Shown here: one piece after another, positions 9,422-60,465 of the stretch
Numbering within the stretch: position 1 is the first letter of the stretch
Layout: every line of letters starts with the position of its first letter
Source of the DNA: Candidatus Moraniibacteriota bacterium
GTDB lineage: Bacteria; Patescibacteriota; Minisyncoccia; Moranbacterales; UBA1568
DNA: 64,000 bases
NCBI GenBank assembly: GCA_016699975.1
Contig: CP064994.1
Span: 129,222-193,221 of the forward strand
Direction: 5' to 3'
Translations under genes and position numbers: made by a program
Notes under the pieces: generated by a model
The model's database searches: none
What the model was told of the DNA's origin: nothing
The model's input: only the letters and a program-made list of their open reading frames with translations

Positions 9422-11080
9422 TCAAGAGGCGATACCCCTCCAAAAGGCGCTTCTCTCGATTTCCGGGGATATGGTGGAATTGGTATACACACACGTTTGA
9501 GGGGCGTGGCCATCTTGGCGTGAGGGTTCGAGTCCCTCTATCCCCACCAAATTGCAACTTTTTGCGGAATTGTCGCCCATGCGGGCGATTTTTTCTTTGG
9601 TTTTGCGGAGCAAAACCCAGATGTTTTCAGGGGGGAGAGCTGCGTTTGGGGCAGCCGTTGGCTGCGCCTTTTTGGATTTTAGAAACAGGTTCAATCCGTC
9701 CATTTTCAGAAAAGCCTCTTTTATGGCACTCGGCTCGCCACTTTTTGCAATTTCACAGAGAGAAACGGCTTGTTTGAGCCATTGGCGCATAGGTTCAACC
9801 CAACTCTTGCTGGCAAGCGTTAGCTTGCCGATTTGTTCTTCCAGCGACTTCTTTTCGCTCATTAGTTCACCCTGTCTAGTGCGATAGGTGTTCTGGTCGA
9901 TATCTTGATCTAAATAACTGTCTAAAAGTCGCTGGAGCTTGCCCTGCAAGCTCGCAAGTCGTGTTTGTGCGCTCGCCACAAACAAGCCAGATGTTTGGTT
10001 GGCTTTCTTTTCGTCCTCGTCCAGCATTTTGCCCAGCGTGGTCGCCCACGCTTGCGGCATAGCGTAGCTATGCAAAATGTCCGCCAACTGCGCTACTAAA
10101 TCAGGTTCAGTTACGGCTGGCTCAGTGCAACGGATTGTTTTGTGCTTTCTTGTGCAACGATAATACACATACTCGTGAATATTACCGTTCTTTTGGTGCT
10201 TTATCTTTTTCTCGGCAGTAACGGACAGTTTACACGTTGCACATTTGAGCAAACCGCAAAATATTTGCGGGGCAGTCGCGCCTTTTTGTGGTCGTCCACG
10301 CTTGGCAAGCGTAGCTTGCACCTCATCGAACAGTTTTTTGCTAATAATTGGGGCGTGTTTGCCCTCATGTATCTCGCCAGCATATTTGAAATGCCCATAG
10401 TAAAACGGATTGGTGAGTATGCGCTTAATTTTATCTTTCGGAAACTGTTTGCCAGACTTCGTTAGTATTCCTCTACTTGCTAGAAAAGCGGCGATATCCT
10501 CAAGCCGTTGATCACCTTTGGCGTATAGTTCAAAGGCTTCAGCAACGAGCGGCGACTGCCGGTTGTCTACAACAACGGTTTTCGTTCTTACGTCATTTAT
10601 ATACCCCACAGGCGCAAGCCCAGGGCGTTCACCCCTGCGGACTTTCTGGCGCAAACCTCGTTTTGTATTTTCAGATAGGTTGTCTACATAATATTTTGAC
10701 TGCCCGAATGCTATGGAGAGCATAAACTTGCCTTGTGAGGTATTTTCAAACCAAAAACTAGGAAACTTCAGTGTTCCTAGTTTGCCGCTGTCCAACAAAT
10801 AGACAATCTGCCCACCGTCCACACTATTCCTAGCTAGTCTGTCAGGGTGCCACGCCAAAATATTGCCGCCATCTTTTTCGATTTCAGCCAACAGTTTGCC
10901 AAATACTGGTCTGCCTGTCGTTTTTGCTGACTTTTTCTCTATGAACTCGGCTGCAATATATAAGTTTTCTCTTTTGGCATACTCTCGCAACTCTACCAGT
11001 TGCGCCTCAATGGACAAAACTTGTTTGTCCTCTACGTCAGTAGACTTTCTGGCGTACAGATAATATTTATTGTTTTGCAT
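9422..11080 (-). CDS. Large serine recombinase (resolvase/invertase catalytic domain, recombinase domain and Zn-ribbon)
   Basis: N-terminus YLYARKSTDVEDKQVLSIEAQ has the catalytic Ser and conserved Q. A Cys cluster CGLLKCATCK…YYRCTRK follows, and the C-terminal half is coiled-coil. The last 85 or so residues read through IR-A and antisense across the tRNA, so the true stop is uncertain. Confidence 0.85.
   Translation of the reverse strand: MQNNKYYLYARKSTDVEDKQVLSIEAQLVELREYAKRENLYIAAEFIEKKSAKTTGRPVFGKLLAEIEKDGGNILAWHPDRLARNSVDGGQIVYLLDSGKLGTLKFPSFWFENTSQGKFMLSIAFGQSKYYVDNLSENTKRGLRQKVRRGERPGLAPVGYINDVRTKTVVVDNRQSPLVAEAFELYAKGDQRLEDIAAFLASRGILTKSGKQFPKDKIKRILTNPFYYGHFKYAGEIHEGKHAPIISKKLFDEVQATLAKRGRPQKGATAPQIFCGLLKCATCKLSVTAEKKIKHQKNGNIHEYVYYRCTRKHKTIRCTEPAVTEPDLVAQLADILHSYAMPQAWATTLGKMLDEDEKKANQTSGLFVASAQTRLASLQGKLQRLLDSYLDQDIDQNTYRTRQGELMSEKKSLEEQIGKLTLASKSWVEPMRQWLKQAVSLCEIAKSGEPSAIKEAFLKMDGLNLFLKSKKAQPTAAPNAALPPENIWVLLRKTKEKIARMGDNSAKSCNLVGIEGLEPSRQDGHAPQTCVYTNSTISPEIERSAFWRGIAS
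9465..9549 (+). tRNA. tRNA-Leu(GAG), class II with long variable arm and encoded CCA
   Basis: GGGGATA acceptor stem, anticodon loop TTGAGGG, T-arm GAGGGTTCGAGTCCCTC, 3' end TATCCCC-A-CCA. The last 7 nt (CACCAAA) are repeated at 14087-14093. Confidence 0.85.
9543..9682. repeat. IR-A left copy of about 140 bp. It begins inside the tRNA 3' end and is the reverse complement of 11228..11365 with 2 mismatches.
   Basis: Direct comparison of the two stretches: CACCAAATTGCAACTTTTTGCGGAATTGTCGCCCATGCGGGCG… against the reverse complement of …CGCCCGCATGGGCGATAATTCCGCAAAAAGTTGCAATTTGGTG. Confidence 0.9.
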
Positions 11081-20157: not shown

Positions 20158-20229
20158 TGCCCCCAGTATGAATCGAACATACATCGCTCCCTTAGGACGG
20201 GACCGTTCTATCCGTTGAACTATAGGGGC
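20158..20229 (-). tRNA. tRNA-Arg(CCT), tentative
   Basis: Acceptor GCCCCTA/TGGGGGC, D GTTC/GAAC, anticodon loop GTCCTAA with a 27:43 mismatch, T-arm GTATGTTCGATTCATAC. Confidence 0.6.
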
Positions 20230-20430: not shown

Positions 20431-20503
20431 TGGACCGTAGGAGACTCGAACTCCTCACCTCCTCCATGCCATGGAGGCGCTCTACCAGATGAGCTAACGG
20501 CCC
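20431..20503 (-). tRNA. tRNA-Ala(GGC)
   Basis: GGGCCGTTAGCTCATCTGGTAGAGCGCCTCCATGGCATGGAGG…GAGTTCGAGTCTCCTACGGTCCA, with G3:U70. Confidence 0.85.
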
Positions 20504-20653
20504 AATTTTCATCTTATCCACTTCTTCTCCACAAATTTTTGCGGACCTTGTTCTCAATTATTTTGAAATCAATTGAGCTAAAAAGTGATTTTAGGTATCG
20601 TGCGCTATAATAACATGTCTTTTACCCGAGTCAAACAGAATATAATTCAATTG

Positions 20654-20667
20654 TTCCACAAGGAACA
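20654..20667. promoter_or_regulatory. Palindrome copy 1, GTTCCACAAGGAAC, with a half-site at 20679-20686
   Basis: Read directly from the sequence. Confidence 0.6.
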
Positions 20668-20977
20668 TATTTTAATATGTTCCTTGAATAATATTTCATA
20701 TTTATCTTTTACACATGTATGACTTTTATTTTACATAAAAAAGATGAGTAAATTTTTTATATCTTAGAACTTTTTAGTATCTCTTTTATCTTTTTATCTA
20801 TAGTGCTAACTTTTTATTTACAGAAAAATTTTAGATGTTTTTATTATTAATAAATAATCTATCGAGATGTTCTTCGTGAAACAAAAAATAAAAAATTAGT
20901 GAGCTTTCTAATAATCTAAGTTGACTAATACGATCGTCACGAGTTGCTTATTTTATTATTTGAGATTCTGAGGCATT

Positions 20978-20991
20978 GTTCCTTGTGGAAT
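20978..20991. promoter_or_regulatory. Palindrome copy 2, GTTCCTTGTGGAAT (reverse complement ATTCCACAAGGAAC)
   Basis: Read directly from the sequence. Confidence 0.6.
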
Positions 20992-21266
20992 ACCTGTTTA
21001 TAACTGTGAAAATATACTTACTAGATATAGATACTGAGAAAATCAATAATTGAGAATCCGAAAAATTAATTAATAGATGTCACTTACCAATGAGAGAAGC
21101 TTTGCTTTAAACTACAAAAGAAAAATACTTTGCTAAATTTGATTTAAAATACTCCAGAATTAGAATTGTTATTAGTAGTATGCGACAGTAAATTTTTACA
21201 CTTTTTCAATATATTCAATATATATTGTATCTCTAATATTTTATATACTATTTTTTATACACATTA

Positions 21267-21280
21267 GTTCCACATGAAAC
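21267..21280. promoter_or_regulatory. Palindrome copy 3, GTTCCACATGAAAC
   Basis: Read directly from the sequence. Confidence 0.6.
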
Positions 21281-21531
21281 TATTTTGAATATATAAATAA
21301 TATACATTACTGTTTAAATATCAATTTATATTTTATATTATTTTCTGTTATTTTAATGCAATTTGTCTCTCTTGATTTAAAATATACTCAAAGAATGAAA
21401 TCATAATTTAATTTGATAAATCTACATGATACTATAGTTTTCTAAATATTATTCAAAAAAATTGATTAGTATTATTCTTCATTTGCTAGAATAGAAGCTG
21501 TAACTTCATTTAGACGTGACCATATTTTAGT

Positions 21532-21545
21532 GTTCCACAAAGAAC
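21532..21545. promoter_or_regulatory. Palindrome copy 4, GTTCCACAAAGAAC
   Basis: Read directly from the sequence. Confidence 0.6.
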
Positions 21546-21632
21546 AGGTAAATTTTCAGAAAATTCTTACAAAATAAGAGTATTGAAAATTCGATCAGTA
21601 TGTATAAATTTTTAAAAGTGAGATTAACAAAT

Positions 21633-21646
21633 GTTTCATGTGGAAT
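21633..21646. promoter_or_regulatory. Palindrome copy 5, GTTTCATGTGGAAT
   Basis: Read directly from the sequence. Confidence 0.6.
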
Positions 21647-21852
21647 ATTATAATCCGTGTAGCTTCCTTCCATAGTAGAAATATGGAGGTAAAATTATAG
21701 AATCAAAATTTCCTTTTCGTAAAGGTTTTCTTGATTGGCTCCAAGCAGAGGGAAAATGAAAAAATTCTTAATTTTTGAAATTTTTTTATAAATTAAAAAT
21801 AAAGTATTTGAATAAGTCTTTTTTAATTAAAAACAAAATATATGTATTTAAT

Positions 21853-21866
21853 GTTTCACGTGGAAC
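21853..21866. promoter_or_regulatory. Palindrome copy 6, GTTTCACGTGGAAC
   Basis: Read directly from the sequence. Confidence 0.6.
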
Positions 21867-22730
21867 TTTTAAAAGAATAAGTTATTAATTATTAATGTCT
21901 TTTCTTATCGACCATAACTTTTTACACTTGTTTCCGACAAAAGTAGATTGATGAAAAGAGCTAAATCGCTTAAAAACATAAAAAAATATGAGGTGGTAGA
22001 GAATGATTTACAAGCCCATGGATAAAAAACACCAAATCATGAATGTCGAAACGGAAATTGCCAGGGAAACATGCTATGCGTTTCAGGTCATTTCGAAATG
22101 ATGGGTGGTGGAGTGGGATTTTTTGTGTTCTAAAAATTGTCGAAGATTCCAGAAAAAGTGTAAATAAACGCTTTTTATCGGGGACAATTTTGGGGTGACT
22201 GAGGAAGTGGACAGGCTTTTTATGTTCGGAGAACGGTTCCTTTTTTTAAAAGTTGCAAATGTACCTGAGAGTGAAGATTGCCGGTGAATTTCTTAGCTTT
22301 TGTGAGGATTTATTCTGAAGGTGAATGGTGAAAAGAAATTGAAAATGACCGCTGGGAGCTATAGAGCGTATAGGAGGAAATGTTTTTTCTTTCACTCGAA
22401 AGTATTTTTCCAACACTTAGTCTCGATTCTTTCTATCATCCACATAAATACAGTGTATTGATGGGGCAATCTTGTTGGAAAAAGACAAAAAGAGTGAATT
22501 GTAATGAGGATGTATGGTTTTCTTTGAGGGTATGTCGCACATTTCACATCGTACTTATATTCCAGGGAACACAGGCGAATCTTTTCATTTTTATTTCCAG
22601 GGCTCTTTTGTTGAGAAGGAGAAAGAAAGAGGGGCGGCGGAAGGTGATTTTTCATGAAAAGAAAAGTGAAAGAGCAAAATGCGGCGAGGCTCTCTTCTTA
22701 TAGATATTCTTTTCTTTCGTAAAAGCATTC

Positions 22731-51123: not shown

Positions 51124-52505
51124 ATGAAAACGAAAACATGTTTCGCGAGGGCGGCTGCAGCCTTTCTTCTCGCGAGTTCGACGCTTCTTTTGTCTGGCTG
51201 TGGGCTCCGTACGTCGGACACGACCTACAAAATGAATTTGGAAATCTGGGGCGTTTTCGATGATTCCGATGCGTTCCAGCAAGTTATTGGGAAGTATAAG
51301 GAACTTAATCCGAATGTTGGGGAAGTTTCTTATCGAAAGTTTGCGGTTGATACGTATCGGCAAGACTTGATTGAAGCGCTCGCCGCCGGAAAGGGTCCAG
51401 ATATTTTCCTTGTGCGCAACTCTTGGACGCCGTCTTTTTCGGACAAAATCGTTCCTGCGCCGGAAGGTATGATGACGGAGCGAAACTATCGTGATACGTT
51501 CGTAGACACGGTTTCCGACGACTTCATTTCGAATGACAATAAGATACTCGGTGTTTCTTTGTCGGTCGATTCGCTCGCGCTCTACTATAATGAAGACCTT
51601 TTAAATGCTGCCGGTATCGCGACTCCTCCTAAAACATGGGACGAGTTTCAAGACGATATCCGCCTCCTGACACGCATCAATTCTTTCGGGGAAATTACGC
51701 AGGCGGGTGCCGCTCTTGGGACGGCGGAAAATATCAATCGCTCGACCGATATTTTAAGCGCCCTCTTTTTGCAAAATGGCGTCTTGGTGCCTCGAGGAAA
51801 TAGCAATGAACTGCACCTCAGTTCTGCGGCAGGTGTGAACGCCCTCTTCTATACACAATTTTCGAACCCCCAGGTCCTCTCTTTATACGTGGAACCCCTC
51901 TCTTCATTATTCGATTGACTCGTTTCCACGAGGGCACGACCGCAATGATGATTAATTATTCTTGGCACTACGATACGATTAAGCGAAAAAATTCGAAACT
52001 CAATTTCGGTGTGGCGCCGCTTCCTCAGTCAGTGGGAACGCAACCGTATAACTTTCCCGCATATTGGGGGTTTGTGGTGGCGAAGAACAAAACTGCTCCC
52101 GCGGGAACCAAAGATACGGCACTCTACGAAAGGGTACGGAGTTTTGAAGCGTGGCAATTTCTGAAGTATGCTGCTTTCCCAAACTCGGGGACGATTACAC
52201 TGCAGAATGCGCTCTCAGGAAATACGAAAAATTTTCAAACAAACTTTGATCCTGCAGCTGCTTACCTTACGAAAACTCGGCGTCCGGCAGCTCGGCGCGA
52301 CCTCGTCGAAAAGGAGCGGAATGATCCGGTGCTTGGTCCGTTTGCGGATGGGAATTTGCTTGCGCGAAACTGGCGGCAAGCCGATCCAGAAAGTATCGAA
52401 AAAATTCTCGGTGATATGATAACATCGGTAAACTTAGGTCGAGCGGATATATCGCAGGCGCTCGCGACAGCGGAGAGTCGCATTCAACAGCTTGGAAAAC
52501 GCTAA
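51124..52505 (+). CDS. ABC transporter extracellular solute-binding lipoprotein (sugar/oligosaccharide family 1 type), split by an apparent frameshift near 51905-51925
   Basis: Lipobox LLLSGCG after the signal peptide. The two adjacent ORFs (51124..51918 and 51915..52505) abut in different frames and together make a typical 450 aa SBP. Confidence 0.7.
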
Positions 52506-52539: not shown

Positions 52540-54150
52540 CGTATGACGGTGATTCACACGATGGGACGATTTTTGTTCGCTGCGTTCTTTGGAGGAATTG
52601 CCTTGTTCCCAGTTATTTCGCGCGCCGCAGAGGTCAATTGCGAAGCGATTGGCGGAAGCTGTTCAACGAGTGTTTATTGTACGGATACGGCGCGATACGA
52701 GCCGCAATCAAAATCGGGAACGAGCTGTGAATCGAATACACTTGCAAAGCAATGTTGTATTCCAAAGGCGACTGCCGGATCATGTGACCCCTCCAAATGT
52801 CTCGCGAGCGCCAATTGCTCGGGAACGCTCGACTTTAACAAACACTGCTCGGGCGCCTCTTTTTGTTGCGGAGCTCCAAGCGCTGCCCAAGCCTGTACTG
52901 GCAAAGATGCAAGTGGAAATTCGCGTACAGGACAATGTTCGACATCCGCAACATGCGCGTCGGGAAACCCTCTTTCGGGCGCGTCGGGGTGTTCCGCAGG
53001 AATCGCGTGTTGCGGGTCTCTCTCTCCATCGCCCAGTGGGAGCTGCGAATCGACGGCGGGGCAAAAGTGTTCGTCTGACTGTACCAAAGAAAGCGGCTTT
53101 ACTGCGGGAGGCACCGGCAGCTGCTTTGATGCGGCGAAGAATCAATGTTGCAAACCGACGCAACCAACAGCGGGCAATTCCACAACAATGTGTTCCGGAT
53201 CGCAAAATTCCGGAATCGTGCCTTGTGGACGATCGTGCGACAATCCGGCGACACCGAACGATGAATCAAAAATTTGTACCCTCTGCCATCTTCTGTTGCT
53301 GGTACAAAATATCACCACATGGATTTTTACGGTGATGACGTATATCGCAATCGCCGTCATTGTAGCGATGGGTATTCTCTATATTGTTTCGGCGGGGAAG
53401 CCGGGACTTATCAATATTGCAAAAGGCGGCCTTTGGTCGACGCTTGTTGGATTTGCAGTGGTACTTCTTGGATGGGTCACCATCAATGTGATTTTGTTCG
53501 TTCTTGCAAATGGAACGCTCGGGCAAGATACGGCGACATTTTCGATCAAACAAAACGGAGCGTGGTTCGAATACCGTTGTGATGCGGAATCGAAATACAA
53601 ACGAACGGGACTGACGACTGGCGCCCCGGGATCTGCTCAGAATTCAGGAGGAGTGAATATTGGGGGAAGCAGCGGGGGAGGAGGAAATTGTTCCGTGGTC
53701 AACAATGCTTCATGCTTGTGCAGTCAAAATATGACCTGCTTTGGCTCTCAAAGTGCGCAAGAAGCGAGTAAAATTTGTAACTTTGAGAGTGGAGGGAAAG
53801 TTGATGCGGTGAGTGGTACGGATAAGTGTAAGGACGGAGCTTCTTTCTCGCATGGCATATGGCAAATAAATTTAGTAACTACAAAAGCGAGTAATGGGTT
53901 GCCGAGCGCCTGTGAAGGAGTATTTGTGGGTTCGATGGAATGTGTTCCGGGAGGCTATGTTACCAACTCGCAAGGAGTTCGGTATTGTGGAAAAAGGGAT
54001 TGCTCTGTGGCAAAGAAAGATCAGCTCGATGCATGTCTCAAAGCTATTCGAACTCCAGCTATAAACACAGCAGCCGCGTGCAGTCTCTATAAAGTTCAAG
54101 GATTTGATGCGTGGCCTCATACAAGAAGTACGTGCGGAGTTTCTAAGTGA
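52540..54150 (+). CDS. Pilin-array protein P1: signal peptide, about 240 aa of Cys-rich repeats, a two-helix VirB2/TrbC-like pilin module, a Gly-rich linker and a C-terminal lysozyme/SLT-like domain
   Basis: About 40 Cys in repeated CCxP…C units. Module …MTYIAIAVIVAMGILYIVSAGKPGLINIAKGGLWSTLVGFAVVLLGWV…. C-terminus …NFESGGKVDAVSG…GASFSHGIWQINL… resembles the ES…S…G…GLMQI pattern of lytic transglycosylases. The ORF opens at 52492; the start is chosen at MTVIHTMGRFLFAAFFGGIALFPVISRAAE. Confidence 0.6.
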   Translation, partial: RMTVIHTMGRFLFAAFFGGIALFPVISRAAEVNCEAIGGSCSTSVYCTDTARYEPQSKSGTSCESNTLAKQCCIPKATAGSCDPSKCLASANCSGTLDFNKHCSGASFCCGAPSAAQACTGKDASGNSRTGQCSTSATCASGNPLSGASGCSAGIACCGSLSPSPSGSCESTAGQKCSSDCTKESGFTAGGTGSCFDAAKNQCCKPTQPTAGNSTTMCSGSQNSGIVPCGRSCDNPATPNDESKICTLCHLLLLVQNITTWIFTVMTYIAIAVIVAMGILYIVSAGKPGLINIAKGGLWSTLVGFAVVLLGWVTINVILFVLANGTLGQDTATFSIKQNGAWFEYRCDAESKYKRTGLTTGAPGSAQNSGGVNIGGSSGGGGNCSVVNNASCLCSQNMTCFGSQSAQEASKICNFESGGKVDAVSGTDKCKDGASFSHGIWQINLVTTKASNGLPSACEGVFVGSMECVPGGYVTNSQGVRYCGKRDCSVAKKDQLDACLKAIRTPAINTAAACSLYKVQGFDAWPHTRSTCGVSK

Positions 54151-54701
54151 TTTTTTCGGTAATTTTTCATAGACTTATGAGAAAAGGATACATAATACTT
54201 CTTTTTTTGATCGGCACCCTCCTTGCTGGAGGAATAATTTTCTTCTTGAGATATAGAGGAAATACGGACTCTCTTCCTGTAATTGTTGAGAATAATCGTG
54301 TCACGGGGTATTTCAAAATTGAGGAATCGTCGTCGGCGCCACAAAAGAGGGTATCGATTCAGAATGAAAAAGGAGAGAAGGTGGTAGTAAACAATTTCTT
54401 ACCCGAAGCGAAGCCTCTTAATGAGGCAGGGGACTTAGCGCTTACTCCTGCTCCCGATGTCTATACTCTTCCTGACTACGATATTGCATTTTATGAGCAA
54501 GGGGCGGTATTTCGAATCAGTATCAATGTGGGACCGATCGATACCGTGCGCAAGACTGCAGAAAACGAATTTTTAAGGAAACTTGGTATCTCTCAAGAGG
54601 AAGCATACAAGCTGAACACGTATGTCGGTGTCTCAAAAGAAGTGGATGAAACGTATGCTGGCAGAAATATCGGGCTTAGTTTTTGCAATCCTTCAAGGTA
54701 A
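54147..54701 (+). CDS. Hypothetical membrane-anchored protein inside the pilin array
   Basis: N-terminal TM segment ILLFLIGTLLAGGIIFFL, then a soluble domain with no motifs. Confidence 0.45.
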   Translation: MIFSVIFHRLMRKGYIILLFLIGTLLAGGIIFFLRYRGNTDSLPVIVENNRVTGYFKIEESSSAPQKRVSIQNEKGEKVVVNNFLPEAKPLNEAGDLALTPAPDVYTLPDYDIAFYEQGAVFRISINVGPIDTVRKTAENEFLRKLGISQEEAYKLNTYVGVSKEVDETYAGRNIGLSFCNPSR

Positions 54702-54727: not shown

Positions 54728-55027
54728 ATGATTGCTGCAGCTGCTGGAGTGATTGATGATGCGCCGACATTTGCGGAAGCGTTTCTTCGTCTCTTGCAAT
54801 TTTTGTTGGCGATATTCGGAATACTTGTTATAATTCTTCTCGTTATCGCAGGAGTTTTGTACATGACTTCTGGCGGAAGTGAGGCGCAGGCCACTCTTGC
54901 GAAGAAGGCGCTTTCCGGGGAATTCCCGGTTCTTGGGACTGGGGTCGTTCGTACTCGTTCGTGCGTTTGCCGCATTTTTCGCCGTCTGAGTCTTCCTCAT
55001 TCGAAAAGATCTTCTGAATATTTTTGA
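54728..55027 (+). CDS. Pilin-array protein P3, a short pilin-like hairpin protein with a probable frameshift (true stop at about 54989)
   Basis: …FLRLLQFLLAIFGILVIILLVIAGVLYMTSGGSEAQATLAKKAL. The second hydrophobic helix (…SRFLGLGSFVLVRAFAAFFAV*) appears only after a 1-bp shift in the GGGG run. Confidence 0.5.
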   Translation: MIAAAAGVIDDAPTFAEAFLRLLQFLLAIFGILVIILLVIAGVLYMTSGGSEAQATLAKKALSGEFPVLGTGVVRTRSCVCRIFRRLSLPHSKRSSEYF

Positions 55028-55284
55028 TGGAAATTTGGTGGATTCTCTGGAAATTTGTTTGTAAGAGAGGATGTGCAATCTTTATAAGAGATTTGAGAAA
55101 AACCGTAAGATATTTTTTGTTCTCTCATTGAGAAAGGGAAAAAGATTTGACAAGAAAGTACTCGAAAAGAAAGATGGGTGCCGTTTTCTTTCTTCTCACG
55201 GTGCTTTTTCGGATGTCTTCGACAAAAAATATTTCAGAGTTGTTAAGAGAGAAGTACGTACTTTGATAGAAAGGAGGTGGATAT

Positions 55285-55665
55285 ATGAAACAATCACTCA
55301 TATTGAAGCACGTGGGGGCACTCGCTGTTTCACTTCTCGTGTTTTCGGTGCCTTTGGTGGTATTCGGACAGTGGACCGCGGGGCAAAATAACGCTCAGAG
55401 TGGCGGAACGCCAGACTCTTCTATTTACGAGATTATTCGCACGACGATGAACTATCTCCTCGCGATTCTTGGCTTCATCGCGATTATTGCGTTTGTTATT
55501 GCGGGTATTCTCTACCTTACCGCGTTTGGAGATGAAAAACGTATTGGAACGGCAAAAAATGCAATGTTCTATTCGATAGTCGGCATTATCGTGGCGCTTA
55601 TCGGCTACGTTATCGTAAACGCGGTAGACTCGTGGCTTCGTGCCGGAGCGAACACGCAAATATAG
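55285..55665 (+). CDS. Pilin-array protein P4, the minimal form: signal peptide, a short polar N-region and the pilin module
   Basis: MKQSLILKHVGALAVSLLVFSVPLVVFGQ | …IYEIIRTTMNYLLAILGFIAIIAFVIAGILYLTAFGDEKRIGTAKNAMFYSIVGIIVALIGYVIVNAVDSWLR. Confidence 0.65.
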   Translation: MKQSLILKHVGALAVSLLVFSVPLVVFGQWTAGQNNAQSGGTPDSSIYEIIRTTMNYLLAILGFIAIIAFVIAGILYLTAFGDEKRIGTAKNAMFYSIVGIIVALIGYVIVNAVDSWLRAGANTQI

Positions 55666-55887
55666 GAATTCTTCGAAGGTTTCTTACGAAGCGCTTCTGA
55701 CTCTCATGTCGGAAGCGTTTTGGTTTTTATCTGAGAATTACAAAGAAGGAATGGGAAAAAACTTTTTGAGAATTTTTCCTCCGTACCGCTGAGAAGTGTT
55801 TGGGTGCTTTTGGGAAAAAGTTTCATTGTGTCTTCGCATTGGAAAAAGCGTTTCTTACAAAATGTCTTTTTGTGGTATACTTTCTGT

Positions 55888-56316
55888 ATGCTTTTCGTTC
55901 GCACCACTTTTTCTTTTTTGGTCCTCGTGTCACTCCTCTTTGTGCCGAGCAATTTTTCGGTTGCCCAAACAACAACGCCGACGCCGGGCACAATCGACAC
56001 AAGTACCGGATGGACAGGAGGATTCCAGGCGGTGAAAGACAATTCGGGATTGTCAGGGAAGGGTGTTGATGTGATTGTCTCGGGATTTATGATGTGGCTT
56101 CTCGTCATTGTTGGCTTTCTCTCGATTATCGCCTTTATTATTGCCGGCATCATGTACCTGACCGCAGCGGGAAATGACGGGCAGATCAAAAATGCAAAGC
56201 AAGCCATGTTCTATTCTATTGTCGGCGTTATCGTAGCGCTCGTCGGGTATGTGGTGATACAGGCAGTCGACTTTCTGTTGCGCGGGGCGGATTCAACTGG
56301 TTCAATAACTTTGTAA
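55888..56316 (+). CDS. Pilin-array protein P5: signal peptide, a Thr/Gly-rich N-domain and the pilin module
   Basis: MLFVRTTFSFLVLVSLLFVPSNFSVAQ | …MMWLLVIVGFLSIIAFIIAGIMYLTAAGNDGQIKNAKQAMFYSIVGVIVALVGYVVIQAVD…. Confidence 0.65.
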   Translation: MLFVRTTFSFLVLVSLLFVPSNFSVAQTTTPTPGTIDTSTGWTGGFQAVKDNSGLSGKGVDVIVSGFMMWLLVIVGFLSIIAFIIAGIMYLTAAGNDGQIKNAKQAMFYSIVGVIVALVGYVVIQAVDFLLRGADSTGSITL

Positions 56317-56345
56317 TTTTACCTTTAAATTTCTGAAGCTTTATT

Positions 56346-56666
56346 ATGGAGCCATTTTTTATAGAGGACAGTATAGAGGACAAGCCTTACATGCAGGGAG
56401 CGGCTACTTCGAATCTTCCCGATGCGGGAATTTACGAAATTGTTGCCGCCACTATGGATTGGCTTCTCGCGATTCTCGGTTTTATTGCAATTATCGGCTT
56501 TGTCATTGCCGGCATCATGTACCTGACCGCAGCGGGAAATGACGGGCAGATCAAAAATGCAAAGCAAGCCATGTTCTATTCTATTGTCGGCGTTATCGTA
56601 GCGCTCGTCGGGTATGTGGTGATACAGGCAGTCGACTTGTGGCTCAATGCGAGCTCCCAATTTTAG
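56346..56666 (+). CDS. Pilin-array protein P6. Its pilin module is 100% identical at DNA level over 139 bp to P5; the N-region differs and has no obvious signal peptide.
   Basis: …IYEIVAATMDWLLAILGFIAIIGFVIAGIMYLTAAGNDGQIKNAKQAMFYSIVGVIVALVGYVVIQAVDLWL. Confidence 0.6.
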   Translation: MEPFFIEDSIEDKPYMQGAATSNLPDAGIYEIVAATMDWLLAILGFIAIIGFVIAGIMYLTAAGNDGQIKNAKQAMFYSIVGVIVALVGYVVIQAVDLWLNASSQF

Positions 56667-56681
56667 AGGTCTTGGGTATCT

Positions 56682-57401
56682 ATGAAGAAATATCTTTTCG
56701 TTTTTCTTGTTTCTCTGTGTGCAGGCGCTTTTTTTTCTCCCGAAGCGCTCTTTGCGCAGAAGAAAGATCCCTGCGGTGCGGGGGGAGCGGGAACTTGTCA
56801 AACGCCCGTGAACGGATCGCAGTGTCCTCAGGGGAGTTACCTTGGCTGGAGCCCAAGCTGTTCCTCCCCGACTATTTGTTGCGCTTCTTCGGGAGGAACA
56901 GGAACGCAGGTGACGGGATGTCCGATGTTAAACCCGGCTCGTTGCCAGACCACGCCTTGCCCGGATAAAACTTTCAATAATGCTGCTTGCGCCTCGCAGT
57001 GCTCTGCCGGCACGTATTATTGTGAACCAGTTATCGATGTCACGGGATCCGTTACCACGGTGAAATGCGATCCGACAAAGTTTAAAGAATATGCGGGAGT
57101 TTGTTTTCCTCTCAAGGAGACAACAGGATTGTCAGAAACATCGGTTGCCGAGATTGTCGTCAATCTCATGCGCTGGATGCTCTTTCTGTTCGGGTTTCTC
57201 GCGATCATTGCATTTATTATTTCTGGTATTCAGTACCTCACGTCGGCTGGCAATATGAATACGATCGAAACGGCGAAGCGCAATATGAAGTATTCCATCA
57301 TCGGTGTTATCGTTGCTCTTGCGGGGCTTGTCATCATAGTGGCGATCGATGCACTCCTGCGCGGAACAGCTTGGGGAGGTGGCGGAGCGGTGACCTTTTA
57401 A
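56682..57401 (+). CDS. Pilin-array protein P7: signal peptide, a Cys-rich domain of about 130 aa and the pilin module
   Basis: MKKYLFVFLVSLCAGAFFSPEALFAQ | 17 Cys including CCASSGG…C. Module …MRWMLFLFGFLAIIAFIISGIQYLTSAGNMNTIETAKRNMKYSIIGVIVALAGLVIIVAIDALL. Confidence 0.65.
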   Translation: MKKYLFVFLVSLCAGAFFSPEALFAQKKDPCGAGGAGTCQTPVNGSQCPQGSYLGWSPSCSSPTICCASSGGTGTQVTGCPMLNPARCQTTPCPDKTFNNAACASQCSAGTYYCEPVIDVTGSVTTVKCDPTKFKEYAGVCFPLKETTGLSETSVAEIVVNLMRWMLFLFGFLAIIAFIISGIQYLTSAGNMNTIETAKRNMKYSIIGVIVALAGLVIIVAIDALLRGTAWGGGGAVTF

Positions 57402-57435
57402 CTTTTCGAACGACGGTCGTTATTTCATAATTTCT

Positions 57436-58358
57436 ATGAAGACTTGCACGAGTTTCGTAAGGGGGATTTTCCTTGGGATGGTTTTTTTTTCTCGAGCCTA
57501 TTTTTTGTTACCGAAAATGCCGCTGCGCAAGGCACGAGCTGCCCGAGCCCTGAAACAAACTGCAAGGCGGAATGTACGAATCAGGTGACTGCTTGTGCGA
57601 GCGCGTGCGCAAACCAAGGAAGCAACTTGTACTACTGCCCTTCTGGCTCAAGCACTTGTAATGCAAGCTACTGCAAGTCGGCCTGTGATATGAATACTGA
57701 TGACACCACGCAAACGGCTTGCAACAGTGTTTGTAAGACGCCAGGCTTGTCACAGTATTGTCCTCCGAAAGGGAGCTCTCCTCCTGATGGAACGACGGGA
57801 CCCGGCGCGACCAATGTCATCGATATTTCTCTTCCTAATCCGCTCAAGTACAATACGGTTCAAGAAGTTGTCATGGCGCTCCTCTACGCGCTTCAGGGCA
57901 TCATCGTGATTCTTTCTTTGGTTTTTATTGTTTTTGGTGCGGTTCTCTACATTACGTCGGCCGGGAACCAATCTCGCGTGACCGCTGCAAAAACAGCGAT
58001 TACCGCGGCCCTTATCGGACTCGCGATCGGAATTCTCGCGCCCACATTTCTCAAAGAGATCGCTACTATTCTCGGATGGAATGCTACCGCGCCGCTTCCG
58101 CCCGAAGTCACGAATGCGCGTGGCGCGGCCGATATTCTTCTTTCGGCGCTCAATTTCCTCTTGGGAATGGTAGGAATTCTCGCGATTATTATGTTGGTGG
58201 TGGGTGGCATTATGTTCTTGGGAGCGGCGGGCGATACAACTCGTGTTTCTACAGCAAAGAAGATTGTAACGTATGCGCTCCTCGGTCTTGTCGTCGCGCT
58301 CGGATCTTTGGTGGTGGTGAGACAGCTCGCAGAATTTTTTGCAGGGACAACCTCATAG
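57436..58358 (+). CDS. Pilin-array protein P8: signal peptide, a Cys-rich domain and two tandem pilin modules. The start is restored across a T9 homopolymer; the ORF as sequenced runs 57444..58358.
   Basis: With T10 instead of T9 the N-terminus reads MKTCTSFVRGIFLGMVFFFSSLFFVTENAAAQG | TSCPSPETNCKAEC…. Module A …GIIVILSLVFIVFGAVLYITSAGNQSRVTAAKTAITAALIGLAIGIL. Module B …FLLGMVGILAIIMLVVGGIMFLGAAGDTTRVSTAKKIVTYALLGLVVALGSLVV. Confidence 0.6.
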
Positions 58359-58416: not shown

Positions 58417-59790
58417 CTAAAGGGGGAAGTCTACTTCCCTTATAACGAACCCGAGATTTGTCTCGTCTTCCACTCCTCGATACTGTTCGTACGAAGGAGG
58501 AACATTGAAACGAAACTCGACGCAACCATCCTGCTGCGTTTTGAATATCCTTCCCACTGGTACCCCGCCGAGGAGGGGCACATAGGCGCTCCCTGAATCC
58601 TGATAGGGGAGATCTTCGGGGGTTGAATAGAACAGCCCTGTGACTCGGTGTGCCTCCGAAACCCCCGTACTGCGGTCAATCGTGCGAAAGGATATCCTAT
58701 CACTTGCCGCCGTTGTCACGCTCACAAAGGTGTAGCGAGCGTTGGGTTTCAAACCGCAAAGTTTTTCAGGCTTCAGGGTTTGTATGCTCAATGAGCGGGT
58801 CGTCTCGTTTCCTGCGAACAGTTTTTTCACCTTTGGATTGTGCGCGGCGTCCCTCACGACATCTCGCCCCGAGGAGAGAAGAAGCAAGCCTAATACCAAG
58901 AGCGAGACAAGGATAAAGATTGTCCTCAGTATACGACTCCACGAGAGCGTTATGGTACTTCCACTCCATTTCAATAGGAGTAGACCGATGAATGCTACGG
59001 CCAGCACTCCGAAGAGGAGAGCTCTATTGTCGGGATCTGTCACAAATTCCCCGAGAGTAGAGAGCGTTTGAATAGTATTTTGCTTGAGTTGTTGTCGATG
59101 AGATCCTCTCTTTGTCTCATTGAGAAGAGCAACTTCTTCCGAAGTTAGTTGGTCAGAGGTGAGATTCTTTTCACGAATCCTTTTTTGTAACTCCCTCTGT
59201 TTCGTAATGAGAGACAGAGATTCGTTTTCTTCCAGTAAGGCTTCGGTGTAAGCAATCTCTTTCTCTACCTTGTCGGGGGTAAGAACTGGGAAAATAGTGT
59301 TCAGAAGTGCCAAAATGATTACAATTGCACCGTACCAAAGGGAAACTTTTTTAAACCATTCCCCCTCTCTGTACACCATGCCCCAGTATCCCAATGTTAA
59401 TGAAGCCGCAATTATAATTCCGGCCATTTTTGGGTGTTGACCAAAGTCCCATGTTCCCAAAAACAAAAACATGAAACTATTGACGAATGCAATGTTTACG
59501 GCAGCAGTGATCAGACTCTTGATCGCAACATTTACAGTGTGCGTCGCAGTTGGACCCGCTGGGAGCAAACCCCAGAGGAAACCTCCTAACAAGGTTATCC
59601 CTATTATGTCTGGAGATAATCCTACCCCGATAACAAAGACTGAAAAGAGGACCGATATCGCAATACAAACTCCTCCAAATCCGAATGCTATTGCCACGAG
59701 CCCTACCCCGTAAGCGAATGCATGGATAAGAAAAAGAAAAAAAAGAAGTGCTTTCCAGGCTTCTCGAGTCGTTTGCCAAGTTGTAAGCAT
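58417..59790 (-). CDS. Large polytopic membrane protein with a central coiled-coil and a C-terminal soluble domain, hypothetical
   Basis: Six or more hydrophobic helices at the N-terminus, a second TM cluster after a coiled-coil, and no catalytic motif. Confidence 0.45.
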   Translation of the reverse strand: MLTTWQTTREAWKALLFFLFLIHAFAYGVGLVAIAFGFGGVCIAISVLFSVFVIGVGLSPDIIGITLLGGFLWGLLPAGPTATHTVNVAIKSLITAAVNIAFVNSFMFLFLGTWDFGQHPKMAGIIIAASLTLGYWGMVYREGEWFKKVSLWYGAIVIILALLNTIFPVLTPDKVEKEIAYTEALLEENESLSLITKQRELQKRIREKNLTSDQLTSEEVALLNETKRGSHRQQLKQNTIQTLSTLGEFVTDPDNRALLFGVLAVAFIGLLLLKWSGSTITLSWSRILRTIFILVSLLVLGLLLLSSGRDVVRDAAHNPKVKKLFAGNETTRSLSIQTLKPEKLCGLKPNARYTFVSVTTAASDRISFRTIDRSTGVSEAHRVTGLFYSTPEDLPYQDSGSAYVPLLGGVPVGRIFKTQQDGCVEFRFNVPPSYEQYRGVEDETNLGFVIREVDFPL

Positions 59791-59808: not shown

Positions 59809-60465
59809 TTAGGAGAATTTGACTAAAAGTATGATCAGTAGAAGAAAAACGAAAATTCCAAGGGGCAATAGTCCCCATTTCCTGAATTTTCCGAGTTTCT
59901 GGTTTGCTTGAGTTGTCCATTTGGGATTGTTAATCGAGTCCAGAATTGGATATCCCAATTCTTTCGCTTTCGCAATAGCCCAATTCACTTGTTCTGGCAG
60001 AGACGACTCACTGATCATATTCTTTGCAATGAGAGCTTGTACTGTCTTTTGTTCTCCTTCTTGGTATATCATGCGAGCCCATTGGGCCAAATTATGAAGA
60101 CGAGGATCATTCGGATTGAGCTCTTCTCGAACCTCGTGAGAAGCGAACTTGTCTCCCTTTTTTCCTCCCCATACACCCTTTTTCACCACTGGTAGTGGCA
60201 GGCTAATAATAGATATCCGAAATTGATTGGCTTGGTGTCTTTTTAGAACATCGGTCATCAATTCCTGGATCTTTTTGTGCAACATCGGACCATTCTTCAT
60301 TTGAAGAAGAAGGGTGTGTAGTGTGTCAAAAGTGGATTCGTCTCTTTTGTCGAGAGATCCACCCAATAACCCTGGGAGATATTGCTTTGCCATTTGTTCT
60401 GCCTCTCCTCCTGATGGGAGTAAGGAAAAAATCATTCTTGCAATTTCGCCGGGTCTTATGACCAT
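59809..60465 (-). CDS. Hypothetical tail-anchored protein
   Basis: Single C-terminal TM segment LLPLGIFVFLLLIILLV. Confidence 0.4.
   Translation of the reverse strand: MVIRPGEIARMIFSLLPSGGEAEQMAKQYLPGLLGGSLDKRDESTFDTLHTLLLQMKNGPMLHKKIQELMTDVLKRHQANQFRISIISLPLPVVKKGVWGGKKGDKFASHEVREELNPNDPRLHNLAQWARMIYQEGEQKTVQALIAKNMISESSLPEQVNWAIAKAKELGYPILDSINNPKWTTQANQKLGKFRKWGLLPLGIFVFLLLIILLVKFS

Follow-up and report, generated by a model that had tools for sequence, protein, structure and literature searches.

A VirB2-like pilin with a divergent lysozyme-like tail heads a pilin array in Candidatus Moraniibacteriota

How do Patescibacteria pass type IV secretion system (T4SS) pili through the cell wall, if most of their pilin-bearing genomes encode no separate wall-cutting protein of the VirB1 type? 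The T4SSs of this group resemble the conjugation systems of Gram-positive bacteria and yet unusually have arrays of VirB2-like pilins (PMC10633639, PMC12857230). These arrays rank among the most striking traits of the group. In Southlakia epibionticum, the sole species with a genetic analysis, the array proved essential (PMC10633639), and reviews speculate that the pilus joins epibiont and host (PMC12857230). VirB1-type hydrolases, whose presumed job is to open the wall for the apparatus, are missing from most VirB2-bearing genomes in a 2025 survey, which reasoned from this absence that pilus biogenesis can apparently do without VirB1 and that its role might fall to other glycosidases (PMC12102498). 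Here, we analyzed a 64-kb stretch of Candidatus Moraniibacteriota DNA (the window, to which all coordinates refer unless another locus is named) that contains a gene, P1, combining a VirB2-like pilin hairpin with a lysozyme-like domain in a single protein. We conclude that P1 belongs, as a divergent and wrongly annotated member with an extra stalk, to a recurrent T4SS_pilin plus SLT_3 architecture of Patescibacteria, and that, judging from its sequence, a wall-cleaving pilin function is plausible.

A pilin hairpin within a three-part protein

The open reading frame (ORF) of P1 lies on the forward strand and runs in a single frame from a TTG at 52492 to a TGA stop at 54148-54150. Translation probably begins at the ATG at 52543; the resulting protein has 535 aa, and residues are numbered here from this ATG. 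This protein is identical to GenBank QQS21079.1 (P0216 among the relatives collected in this study), which comes from a 1,048,819-bp contig of a Candidatus Moraniibacteriota metagenome-assembled genome; near-identical 535-aa proteins were found in other samples, and full-length homologues share 41 to 49% identity with it across the entire protein. QQS21079.1 carries the public name “AzlD domain-containing protein,” a label that presumably derives from the hydrophobic hairpin and that nothing in our analysis backs. The parts of P1 are as follows.

52543..54150, +: P1 coding sequence, 535 aa plus TGA stop (alternative TTG start at 52492)
52543..52626, +: Sec-type signal peptide MTVIHTMGRFLFAAFFGGIALFPVISRA, aa 1-28 (read from the sequence by eye)
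52630..53277, +: extracytoplasmic Cys-rich region, four six-Cys modules and a partial fifth (Cys spacing, module alignment)
53278..53505, +: T4SS_pilin (VirB2/TrbC-like) helix-loop-helix hairpin (PF18895, AlphaFold2, hhalign)
53533..53583, +: post-hairpin motif ATFSIKQNGAWFEYRCD, predicted beta-hairpin with an invariant Cys (conservation, full-length model)
53620..53688, +: Gly/Ser-rich linker ending in GSSGGGGN (sequence)
53689..54147, +: C-terminal lysozyme-like domain of the divergent SLT_3/PF18896 type, 153 aa with 13 Cys (Pfam, AlphaFold2, profiles)
53785..53790, +: candidate catalytic pair Glu415-Ser416 (conservation, alignments, domain model)
53842..53871, +: SFSHGIWQIN, counterpart of lysozyme “DYGILQIN” and SLT “GLMQ” (conservation, alignments)

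This layout bears out the original prediction of a three-part fusion, as the Cys-rich stalk, the pilin hairpin and the lysozyme-like tail are all real. The pilin module is indeed not C-terminal: hydrophobic stretches that coincide with AlphaFold2 (AF2) helices occupy aa 246-282 and 287-321, with a four-residue loop between them, and the tail follows. The strings on which that prediction relied are all present, namely, GSSGGGGN (aa 375-382, nt 53665-53688), NFESGGKVDAVSG (aa 413-425, nt 53779-53817) and GASFSHGIWQINL (aa 432-444, nt 53836-53874), and the Cys-bearing C-terminal domain that it placed at about 150 aa corresponds to aa 383-535.

The signal peptide has a basic n-region, a hydrophobic core (Kyte-Doolittle windows above 1.6 at aa 7-11) and a cleavage site between SRA and AE. 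The region behind it (aa 30-250) contains 29 Cys, arranged as four C..C..C..C..CC modules and a partial fifth whose last residues, an invariant CTLC, stand where the first helix begins. This Cys-rich region has no Pfam match, and relatives bear variable N-terminal regions in its place (e.g., PF18998). The full-length AF2 model of P1 was poor overall (predicted local distance difference test score [pLDDT], 52) and was used only for the hairpin helices and for part of the stalk, where aa ~120-200 were modeled as small beta units with a pLDDT of 85 to 92. The same model places strands at aa 330-337 and 340-347 behind the hairpin, with low confidence. The corresponding ATFSIKQNGAWFEYRCD-type motif is kept in nearly all relatives regardless of their tail domain, and low-complexity linkers equivalent to that of P1 are present in all of them.

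The middle part of P1 is homologous to the neighboring pilins. Against the Pfam family T4SS_pilin (PF18895), the P1 hairpin scored 19 bits (E, 0.0015), below the cut-off of 26.6 bits, and several full-length relatives carry a precomputed PF18895 annotation. A hidden Markov model (HMM) made from the hairpins of 67 relatives matched the five intact pilins downstream of P1 in the window (E, 1e-13 to 1e-21), and comparison of the family hairpin with the window's own PF18895 pilins by hhalign gave a probability of 97.7% (E, 1.8e-12). The P1 loop has the motif Y-I-V-S-A-G-x...A-K, whose residues are invariant in an alignment of the relatives (alignment A2), and the loop signature Y-I-x-S-A-G...A-K is the most invariant stretch of the entire protein. 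Array pilins of related loci also match TrbC (PF04956)/VirB2, weakly. P1 has the two-helix hydrophobic hairpin, the loop motif and the homology to accepted members that characterize T4SS_pilin proteins, together with a signal-peptide-like N terminus and a gene that stands first in an array of 6-7 pilin genes, here as in seven related loci. It shares with VirB2, TrbC and TraA pilins the combination of a signal peptide and a two-helix hairpin with a conserved loop; however, classical pilins are proteins of 70 to 130 aa with no appended domains, whereas P1 has large extracytoplasmic domains at both ends.

The lysozyme-like tail and its candidate active site

Taken alone, the tail of P1 is difficult to recognize. 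It scored 17.7 bits against Transglycosylas, 15 bits against SLT (PF01464; cut-off, 21.3 bits) and 15 bits against SLT_3 (PF18896; E, 0.034; cut-off, 27 bits), all of them sub-threshold and all of them families of the lysozyme clan. A word-index homology search and phmmer against the PDB returned nothing for the tail, and NCBIfam gave no match to P1 or its tail. At the family level, an exhaustive search placed 313 representative clusters in the tail domain family at an E value of ≤1e-3, and among 33 diverse tail domains aligned for further comparisons (alignment A1), 31 matched SLT_3 and 9 matched SLT, with two members (P0144, 29.9 bits; P0186, 33.6 bits) exceeding the SLT_3 gathering score. 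The A1 profile in turn recovered 23 PF18896-annotated proteins (E, 1e-15 to 1e-40); nine of the proteins that it recovered are jointly annotated with PF18895 and PF18896, and the named PF18896 proteins belong to Patescibacteria, Parcubacteria or Moranbacteria. These PF18896 proteins share with P1 the signature ES...SGxD...FSxGLFQIN...W...C.

Profile and fold comparisons point in the same direction. Against the canonical SLT tails that occur on the same pilin scaffold (see below), hhalign aligned the tail domain across the ES and GLMQ motifs (E, 1.2e-4), the match ending after motif II; the C-terminal half of the domain resembles C-type lysozymes. In a search of the PDB with the A1 profile, insect C-type lysozymes ranked first (1GD6; E, 0.034), aligned in two colinear segments, C-x-x-x-E / GLFQIN and A-x-x-I-Y-K...W...C. 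A comparison of A1 with a single hen lysozyme sequence was weak in hhalign (E, 0.021; 29 columns) and aligned the ES and GILQIN motifs. The AF2 model of the isolated tail domain was of high quality (pLDDT, 92.4; predicted template modeling [TM] score, 0.84). Its only meaningful Foldseek matches in the PDB were C-type lysozymes and alpha-lactalbumins, led by 2FBD (probability, 0.96; TMq/TMt, 0.44/0.55), and its named matches in BFVD were mainly phage SLT, goose-type and lysozyme proteins.

The best solved-structure matches are hence C-type lysozymes of GH22 (Bombyx mori 1GD6, Musca domestica 2FBD and the hen egg-white enzyme), with which the P1 tail is colinear through C-x-x-x-E-S, G-L-F-Q-I-N and A-x-x-I-Y-K...W...C and with which three of its Cys align. 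It differs from them by a Cys-rich insertion of ~45 aa with beta strands, and the matches are marginal (E, 0.03 to 0.07; TM, about 0.45 to 0.55). Because these individually weak structure and PDB scores are unanimous and agree with the family-level Pfam result, we conclude that the tail is best described as a divergent SLT_3-type domain of the lysozyme superfamily. An Rpf-like identity (PF06737) was considered and rejected, as its only sign was a 19-residue sub-threshold match at the C terminus, and the PDB search with the A1 profile brought up no Rpf structure.

The original prediction had also noted an echo of the Glu-Ser and GLMQ motifs of muramidases and had proposed a lysozyme-like fold with a catalytic Glu. 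Both proposals hold at the family level, with sub-threshold HMM scores for P1 itself and with weak fold matches. Counted over 155 homologous tail domains, the Glu of the ES pair (Glu415) is invariant and Ser416 is present in 154; the Gly and Gln of G-L-F-Q-I-N are invariant and its Asn occurs in 153; and Asp427 (154/155), a Trp (155/155) and the last Cys (154/155) are similarly constrained. Glu415-Ser416 aligns with Glu35-Ser36 of hen lysozyme and with the ES of canonical SLT tails, and Glu415 aligns with the Glu of an LVEHE stretch in insect lysozymes. In the AF2 model of the domain, the first long helix (domain residues 26-37) has the candidate Glu at its C-terminal end, as in lysozymes.

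The two enzyme families to which the tail was compared are each matched in part. Of the features of family 1 lytic transglycosylases (SLT, GH23), motif I (E-S) and motif II (G-[LI]-[FW]-Q, with G and Q invariant) are present, and no conserved column in A1 corresponds to motif III, AYNxG. Of those of C-type lysozymes, the fold (with weak matches) and a counterpart of the catalytic Glu35, which ends helix B, are present; the position of Asp52 is occupied by Ser in 153 of the 155 domains, and no A1 member matched Pfam Lys at an E value of ≤0.1. The domain has a single obvious carboxylate at a classical position.

The window copy shows a local peculiarity at the start of this domain. Compared with the 99%-identical proteins P0001 and P0219, it has paired in-frame indels at ~53713-53754 (aa 391-404), reading ASCLCSQNMTCFGSQSAQ where both of the others read ASSACAVQNMTCFGSRAQ; the latter version is closer to the family consensus.

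Recurrence of the fusion and its predicted role

The original prediction held that a covalent fusion of pilin and hydrolase would be unusual, but the fusion is not rare. A pilin hairpin lies upstream of the tail domain in 138 of 166 homologues, drawn from independent ENA, JGI, NCBI and Logan assemblies, and the fusion is visible in precomputed Pfam annotation; the remaining homologues are mostly fragments or large proteins with other N-terminal regions. Because so many homologues from many independent assemblies have the hairpin upstream, the P1 fusion is not an artefact. Indeed, the pilin-tail fusion is the dominant architecture of the tail family in Patescibacteria. Its usual form is a protein of ~280 aa annotated with PF18895 and PF18896, in which signal peptide, hairpin, Gly-rich linker and SLT_3 domain follow one another in the same order as in P1. 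P1 is an elaborated version of this form, differing in its divergent tail (15 bits versus the 27-bit cut-off) and in the added Cys-rich stalk of ~220 aa before the hairpin, and this divergence is why public annotation missed the tail. The PF18895-plus-PF18896 relatives are named “hypothetical protein” in their sources, and none is characterized. That the two Pfam families have adjacent accessions suggests that they were built from the same proteins. The architecture was latent in Pfam annotation, and P1 recombines two known modules without a new principle.

The tail itself varies among the relatives that were found through the hairpin. Canonical SLT (PF01464) tails stand at the same position in P0040 (E, 2e-15), P0054 and P0057-P0064. 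A second kind of tail (type B), recognized by “AGEGCN...SCGYSQ,” matched canonical SLT with 95% probability in hhalign and gave no direct hhalign match to the P1-type tail. For a third kind with His/Asp/Cys motifs (type D; P0046, P0047, P0049, P0055 and P0066), searches returned no identity beyond a weak Hedgehog/LAS-type match for P0066 (E, 0.0096). In P0090, a GDSL/SGNH esterase follows the lysozyme-like domain. The varied tails of relatives P0039-P0066 look like domain swapping at a fixed position.

The genomic position is equally regular. Seven related loci contain a recurring block of an SBP_bac_1 lipoprotein gene, the fusion gene, four to seven T4SS_pilin genes (the last of them large) and two convergent genes, preceded by a methyltransferase gene and followed by NusA in six of the seven loci each. 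The first gene of the pilin array encodes a pilin with a tail domain in all seven, whatever the tail: three loci have an SLT_3-like tail, two a canonical SLT tail, one the SLT-like type B tail and one a tail of no identified family. Tandem divergent paralogues of this kind are also found in the T4SS_pilin arrays of S. epibionticum and TM7x.

We favor, with moderate confidence, the reading of P1 as a modular lead pilin of the VirB2-like array that supplies a VirB1-type wall-cleaving function. In VirB2 and TraA, the hairpin lies in the membrane with its loop inside the cell. Sec export and signal-peptide cleavage would likewise leave the P1 hairpin in the membrane and its loop (AGKP...AK) in the cytoplasm, and both the disulfide-rich N-terminal stalk and the Gly-tethered lysozyme-like domain would lie outside the cell. 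The tail is predicted to cut the glycan strands of peptidoglycan with Glu415 as the general acid; as an Asp52-type carboxylate is absent, this would fit lytic-transglycosylase-like chemistry or a lysozyme that uses the near-invariant Asp427. The pilin hairpin would keep the enzyme where pilins assemble, and the tethered enzyme would supply the wall opening for which VirB2-bearing Patescibacteria mostly lack a separate gene. Since there is one such gene per array, always the first, and its bulky ends would be hard to pack, a low-copy initiator or tip subunit seems preferable, one that would open the producer's wall as the filament emerges and would then be presented to the host wall. Topology, catalysis, filament incorporation, tip position and wall target are all features that we infer. 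The strongest argument that wall cleavage has been selected and that it serves the pilin array is the combination of a fixed position with interchangeable, mostly lysozyme-like tails.

VirB1, PrgK (pCF10), TraG (pIP501), TcpG, CwlT and SEML1_0006 of S. epibionticum all have a lysozyme-superfamily or SLT module encoded with T4SS genes, and P1 has a lysozyme-like module encoded with VirB2-like pilins. Hydrolases of the VirB1/PrgK type stand as proteins of their own, either soluble or simply anchored at the N terminus, and a second CHAP or M23 domain is frequent in them; the saccharibacterial SEML1_0006, for example, is a separate protein with two lysozyme-like domains and a Cys protease. P1 is unlike them in that its enzyme is covalently attached to a VirB2-like pilin and its gene opens the array, at a distance from any virB4. 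FlgJ, by comparison, combines a rod-cap domain with a muramidase, phage tail tips and tape-measure proteins carry SLT or lysozyme domains, and modular type 4 pilins are known from Streptococcus sanguinis. These resemble P1 in design, as a building block of a growing appendage bears the module that is needed, although the scaffolds are unrelated; phage tape-measure and SLT proteins were also among the Foldseek matches of the tail. Our literature search turned up no paper that explicitly joins a VirB2-type pilin to a wall hydrolase, and among fusions of assembly proteins with enzymes we found no example that involves a T4SS pilin of the VirB2 type.

Several points weigh against a wall-cleaving lead pilin. 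P1 lies under the curated Pfam cut-offs for T4SS_pilin, SLT, SLT_3 and Transglycosylas, and the matches of its tail to solved and viral structures are weak (E, 0.03 to 0.1; TM, 0.44 to 0.55; large root-mean-square deviation). With AYNxG absent and Ser at the lysozyme Asp52 position, the chemistry cannot be read from the sequence. To our knowledge, no pilus of PF18895 proteins has been demonstrated in Patescibacteria, and a subunit with about 220 aa and 150 aa at its ends may be unable to fit into a filament. Further, our scan of the larger ORFs of the window recognized no VirB4, VirB6, VirD4 or other T4SS core gene, and the annotation of the related loci lists none within 10 kb; the link to a T4SS machine is therefore through pilin homology only.

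Some of these points would be accommodated by a different account, which we consider somewhat unlikely, in which P1 is a membrane-anchored wall hydrolase that uses the hairpin only for anchoring or docking and remodels the producer's wall for a secretion apparatus or for growth. Its hairpin would then be comparable to the N-terminal transmembrane anchors of PrgK, TraG (pIP501), TcpG and CwlT, and bulky domains at both termini, awkward in a packed pilus, would pose no difficulty. Gram-positive VirB1 analogues are likewise membrane-anchored multi-domain hydrolases (PMC12102498), the T4SS hydrolase SEML1_0006 of S. epibionticum is a separate protein, and no filament of these pilins is known. However, the invariance of the pilin loop signature implies a stronger constraint than mere anchoring would require, the gene always stands first in a pilin array and not beside cell-division or wall-synthesis genes, and the conserved extracellular motif behind the hairpin is common to all tail types.

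The reading of P1 as a modular lead pilin can also be extended, to a proposal that we regard as speculative and unlikely. The lead pilin could be a drill head at the tip of the T4SS pilus, with a Cys-rich stalk that binds the host and a tail that cuts host peptidoglycan and so lets the pilus reach the host membrane; the swapped tails would then track the wall chemistry of the hosts, and the co-varying 184-aa protein encoded directly downstream (see below) would be a cognate inhibitor or immunity factor that protects the producer. If this were true, P1 would represent the missing VirB1 of Patescibacteria and would give a molecular handle on how epibionts breach their hosts.

That the tail might instead be an inactive lysozyme-fold binder of glycan or peptidoglycan, making P1 an adhesive modular pilin, appears improbable. 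The presence of alpha-lactalbumins, which are inactive lysozyme relatives, among the top fold matches would agree with it, as would the Ser at the Asp52-equivalent position, the adhesin-like appearance of the N-terminal Cys-rich modules and the existence of modular type 4 pilins with lectin or vWA modules (PMC9934059). Against it, the Glu is invariant and the adjoining Ser and G-L-x-Q-I-N are invariant or nearly so in the 155 sequences, single-carboxylate catalysis is the norm in lytic transglycosylases, relatives have canonical SLT tails with intact motifs at the same position, and an esterase is co-fused in P0090. Finally, a chance motif similarity, or an assembly or frameshift artefact that joined a pilin to an unrelated gene, might have been suspected from the sub-threshold Pfam scores of P1, the empty word-index and PDB phmmer searches with its tail and two neighboring genes with probable frameshifts (the SBP gene, split at 51124-52505, and the truncated pilin at 54728-55027), but this explanation is already refuted by the recurrence of the architecture in independent assemblies, by the near-identical proteins from other samples and by the family HMM, profile-profile and fold evidence, all of which indicates lysozyme-like proteins.

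If wall cleavage is indeed the role of the tail, the fusion may explain how such pili of Patescibacteria cross the wall when no separate wall-cutting protein is encoded. At least for the Moraniibacteriota/Parcubacteria lineage, the sequences suggest an alternative to the view that VirB1 function is dispensable, namely, a wall-cleaving enzyme built into the first pilin of the array. Such a fused enzyme escapes annotation because its domain is divergent, P1 being filed under AzlD and its relatives as hypothetical proteins. The analysis offers a concrete, expressible domain of 153 aa with named residues (E415, D427 and S436), and the conserved position with a swappable enzyme is a comparative pattern that can be surveyed across genomes.

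The pilin array, its neighbors and other features of the window

The window is ordinary chromosome, with genes for PNPase, GyrA, FtsH, TilS, S1, ribonucleotide reductase, CCA-adding enzyme, IF-2 and NusA. We considered and rejected a mobile element or a conjugative plasmid as the setting of the pilin block, as the flanking genes are housekeeping genes (IF-2, NusA, CCA-adding enzyme and ribonucleotide reductase) and synteny is conserved across genomes. The genes that follow P1 in the block are listed here; the array pilins were assigned by PF18895 and the hairpin HMM.

54147..54701, +: 184-aa signal-anchored protein, whose GTG start overlaps the P1 stop (GTGA)
54728..58358, +: further T4SS_pilin array, consisting of the six genes below
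54728-55027, +: array pilin, apparently frameshifted
55285-55665, +: array pilin
55804-56316, +: array pilin
56346-56666, +: array pilin
56682-57401, +: array pilin with a Cys-rich N terminus
57444-58358, +: last array pilin, two tandem T4SS_pilin hairpins after a Cys-rich N-terminal region

The 184-aa protein has no Pfam or NCBIfam match. Homologues (E, 1e-14 to 1e-46) are encoded in the related loci L001 (10799-11329), L003 (11461-12057) and L010 (11516-12043), and a protein of ~180 aa is encoded directly 3' of the SLT_3-type fusion in all four loci examined, the window included. It is absent after the SLT-type and unassigned tails of L006-L008, and a different gene, of 240 aa, follows the type B tail of L009. 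For the lysozyme-like domain, the protein may act as a cognate inhibitor, as an immunity factor or as a chaperone.

Two genes of the block appear to be interrupted in the window. The ORF at 54728-55027 matches only the first helix and the loop of the hairpin; the second helix, LGLGSFVLVRAFAAFFAV, is encoded in another frame in the next ~80 nt, and the equivalent gene of L001 encodes an intact pilin of 90 aa. A frameshifted pilin or a sequencing indel is probable. Upstream of P1, the SBP_bac_1 gene is split into overlapping ORFs at 51124-51918 and 51915-52505 (both +), whereas in relatives this conserved upstream neighbor of the fusion is a single gene of 458 to 482 aa; the split is either a frameshift or an assembly indel. 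The last array pilin (57444-58358) scored 33.9 bits (cut-off, 40) against the NCBIfam family for Mbov_0395 pilin-like conjugal transfer proteins of mycoplasma integrative and conjugative elements.

The two convergent genes that end the pilin block, at 58417-59790 (-) and 59809-60465 (-), match no family, and the related loci have genes of similar size there, also without a Pfam match. The first encodes a polytopic membrane protein and the second a protein with a C-terminal anchor, and both products may contribute to assembly in the pilin system.

Two further features lie at a distance from the block. An ORF for a large serine recombinase (Resolvase, Recombinase and Zn ribbon domains) spans 9422-11080 (-), with an Rfam tRNA match at 9465-9546 (+) on the opposite strand inside its 3' end, and several more tRNA genes occur at 14.2-17.8 kb; an integrated element may be marked here. 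At ~20500-22040, a stretch of 1.5 kb with a GC content of about 0.29 contains no ORF of at least 50 aa and adjoins two tRNA genes (20158-20229 and 20431-20503, both -). It includes at least six copies of a TTCCACA-containing motif in both orientations (e.g., TGTTCCACAAGGAACA and GTTTCACGTGGAA) and could represent an origin of replication, a regulatory region or what is left of an element.

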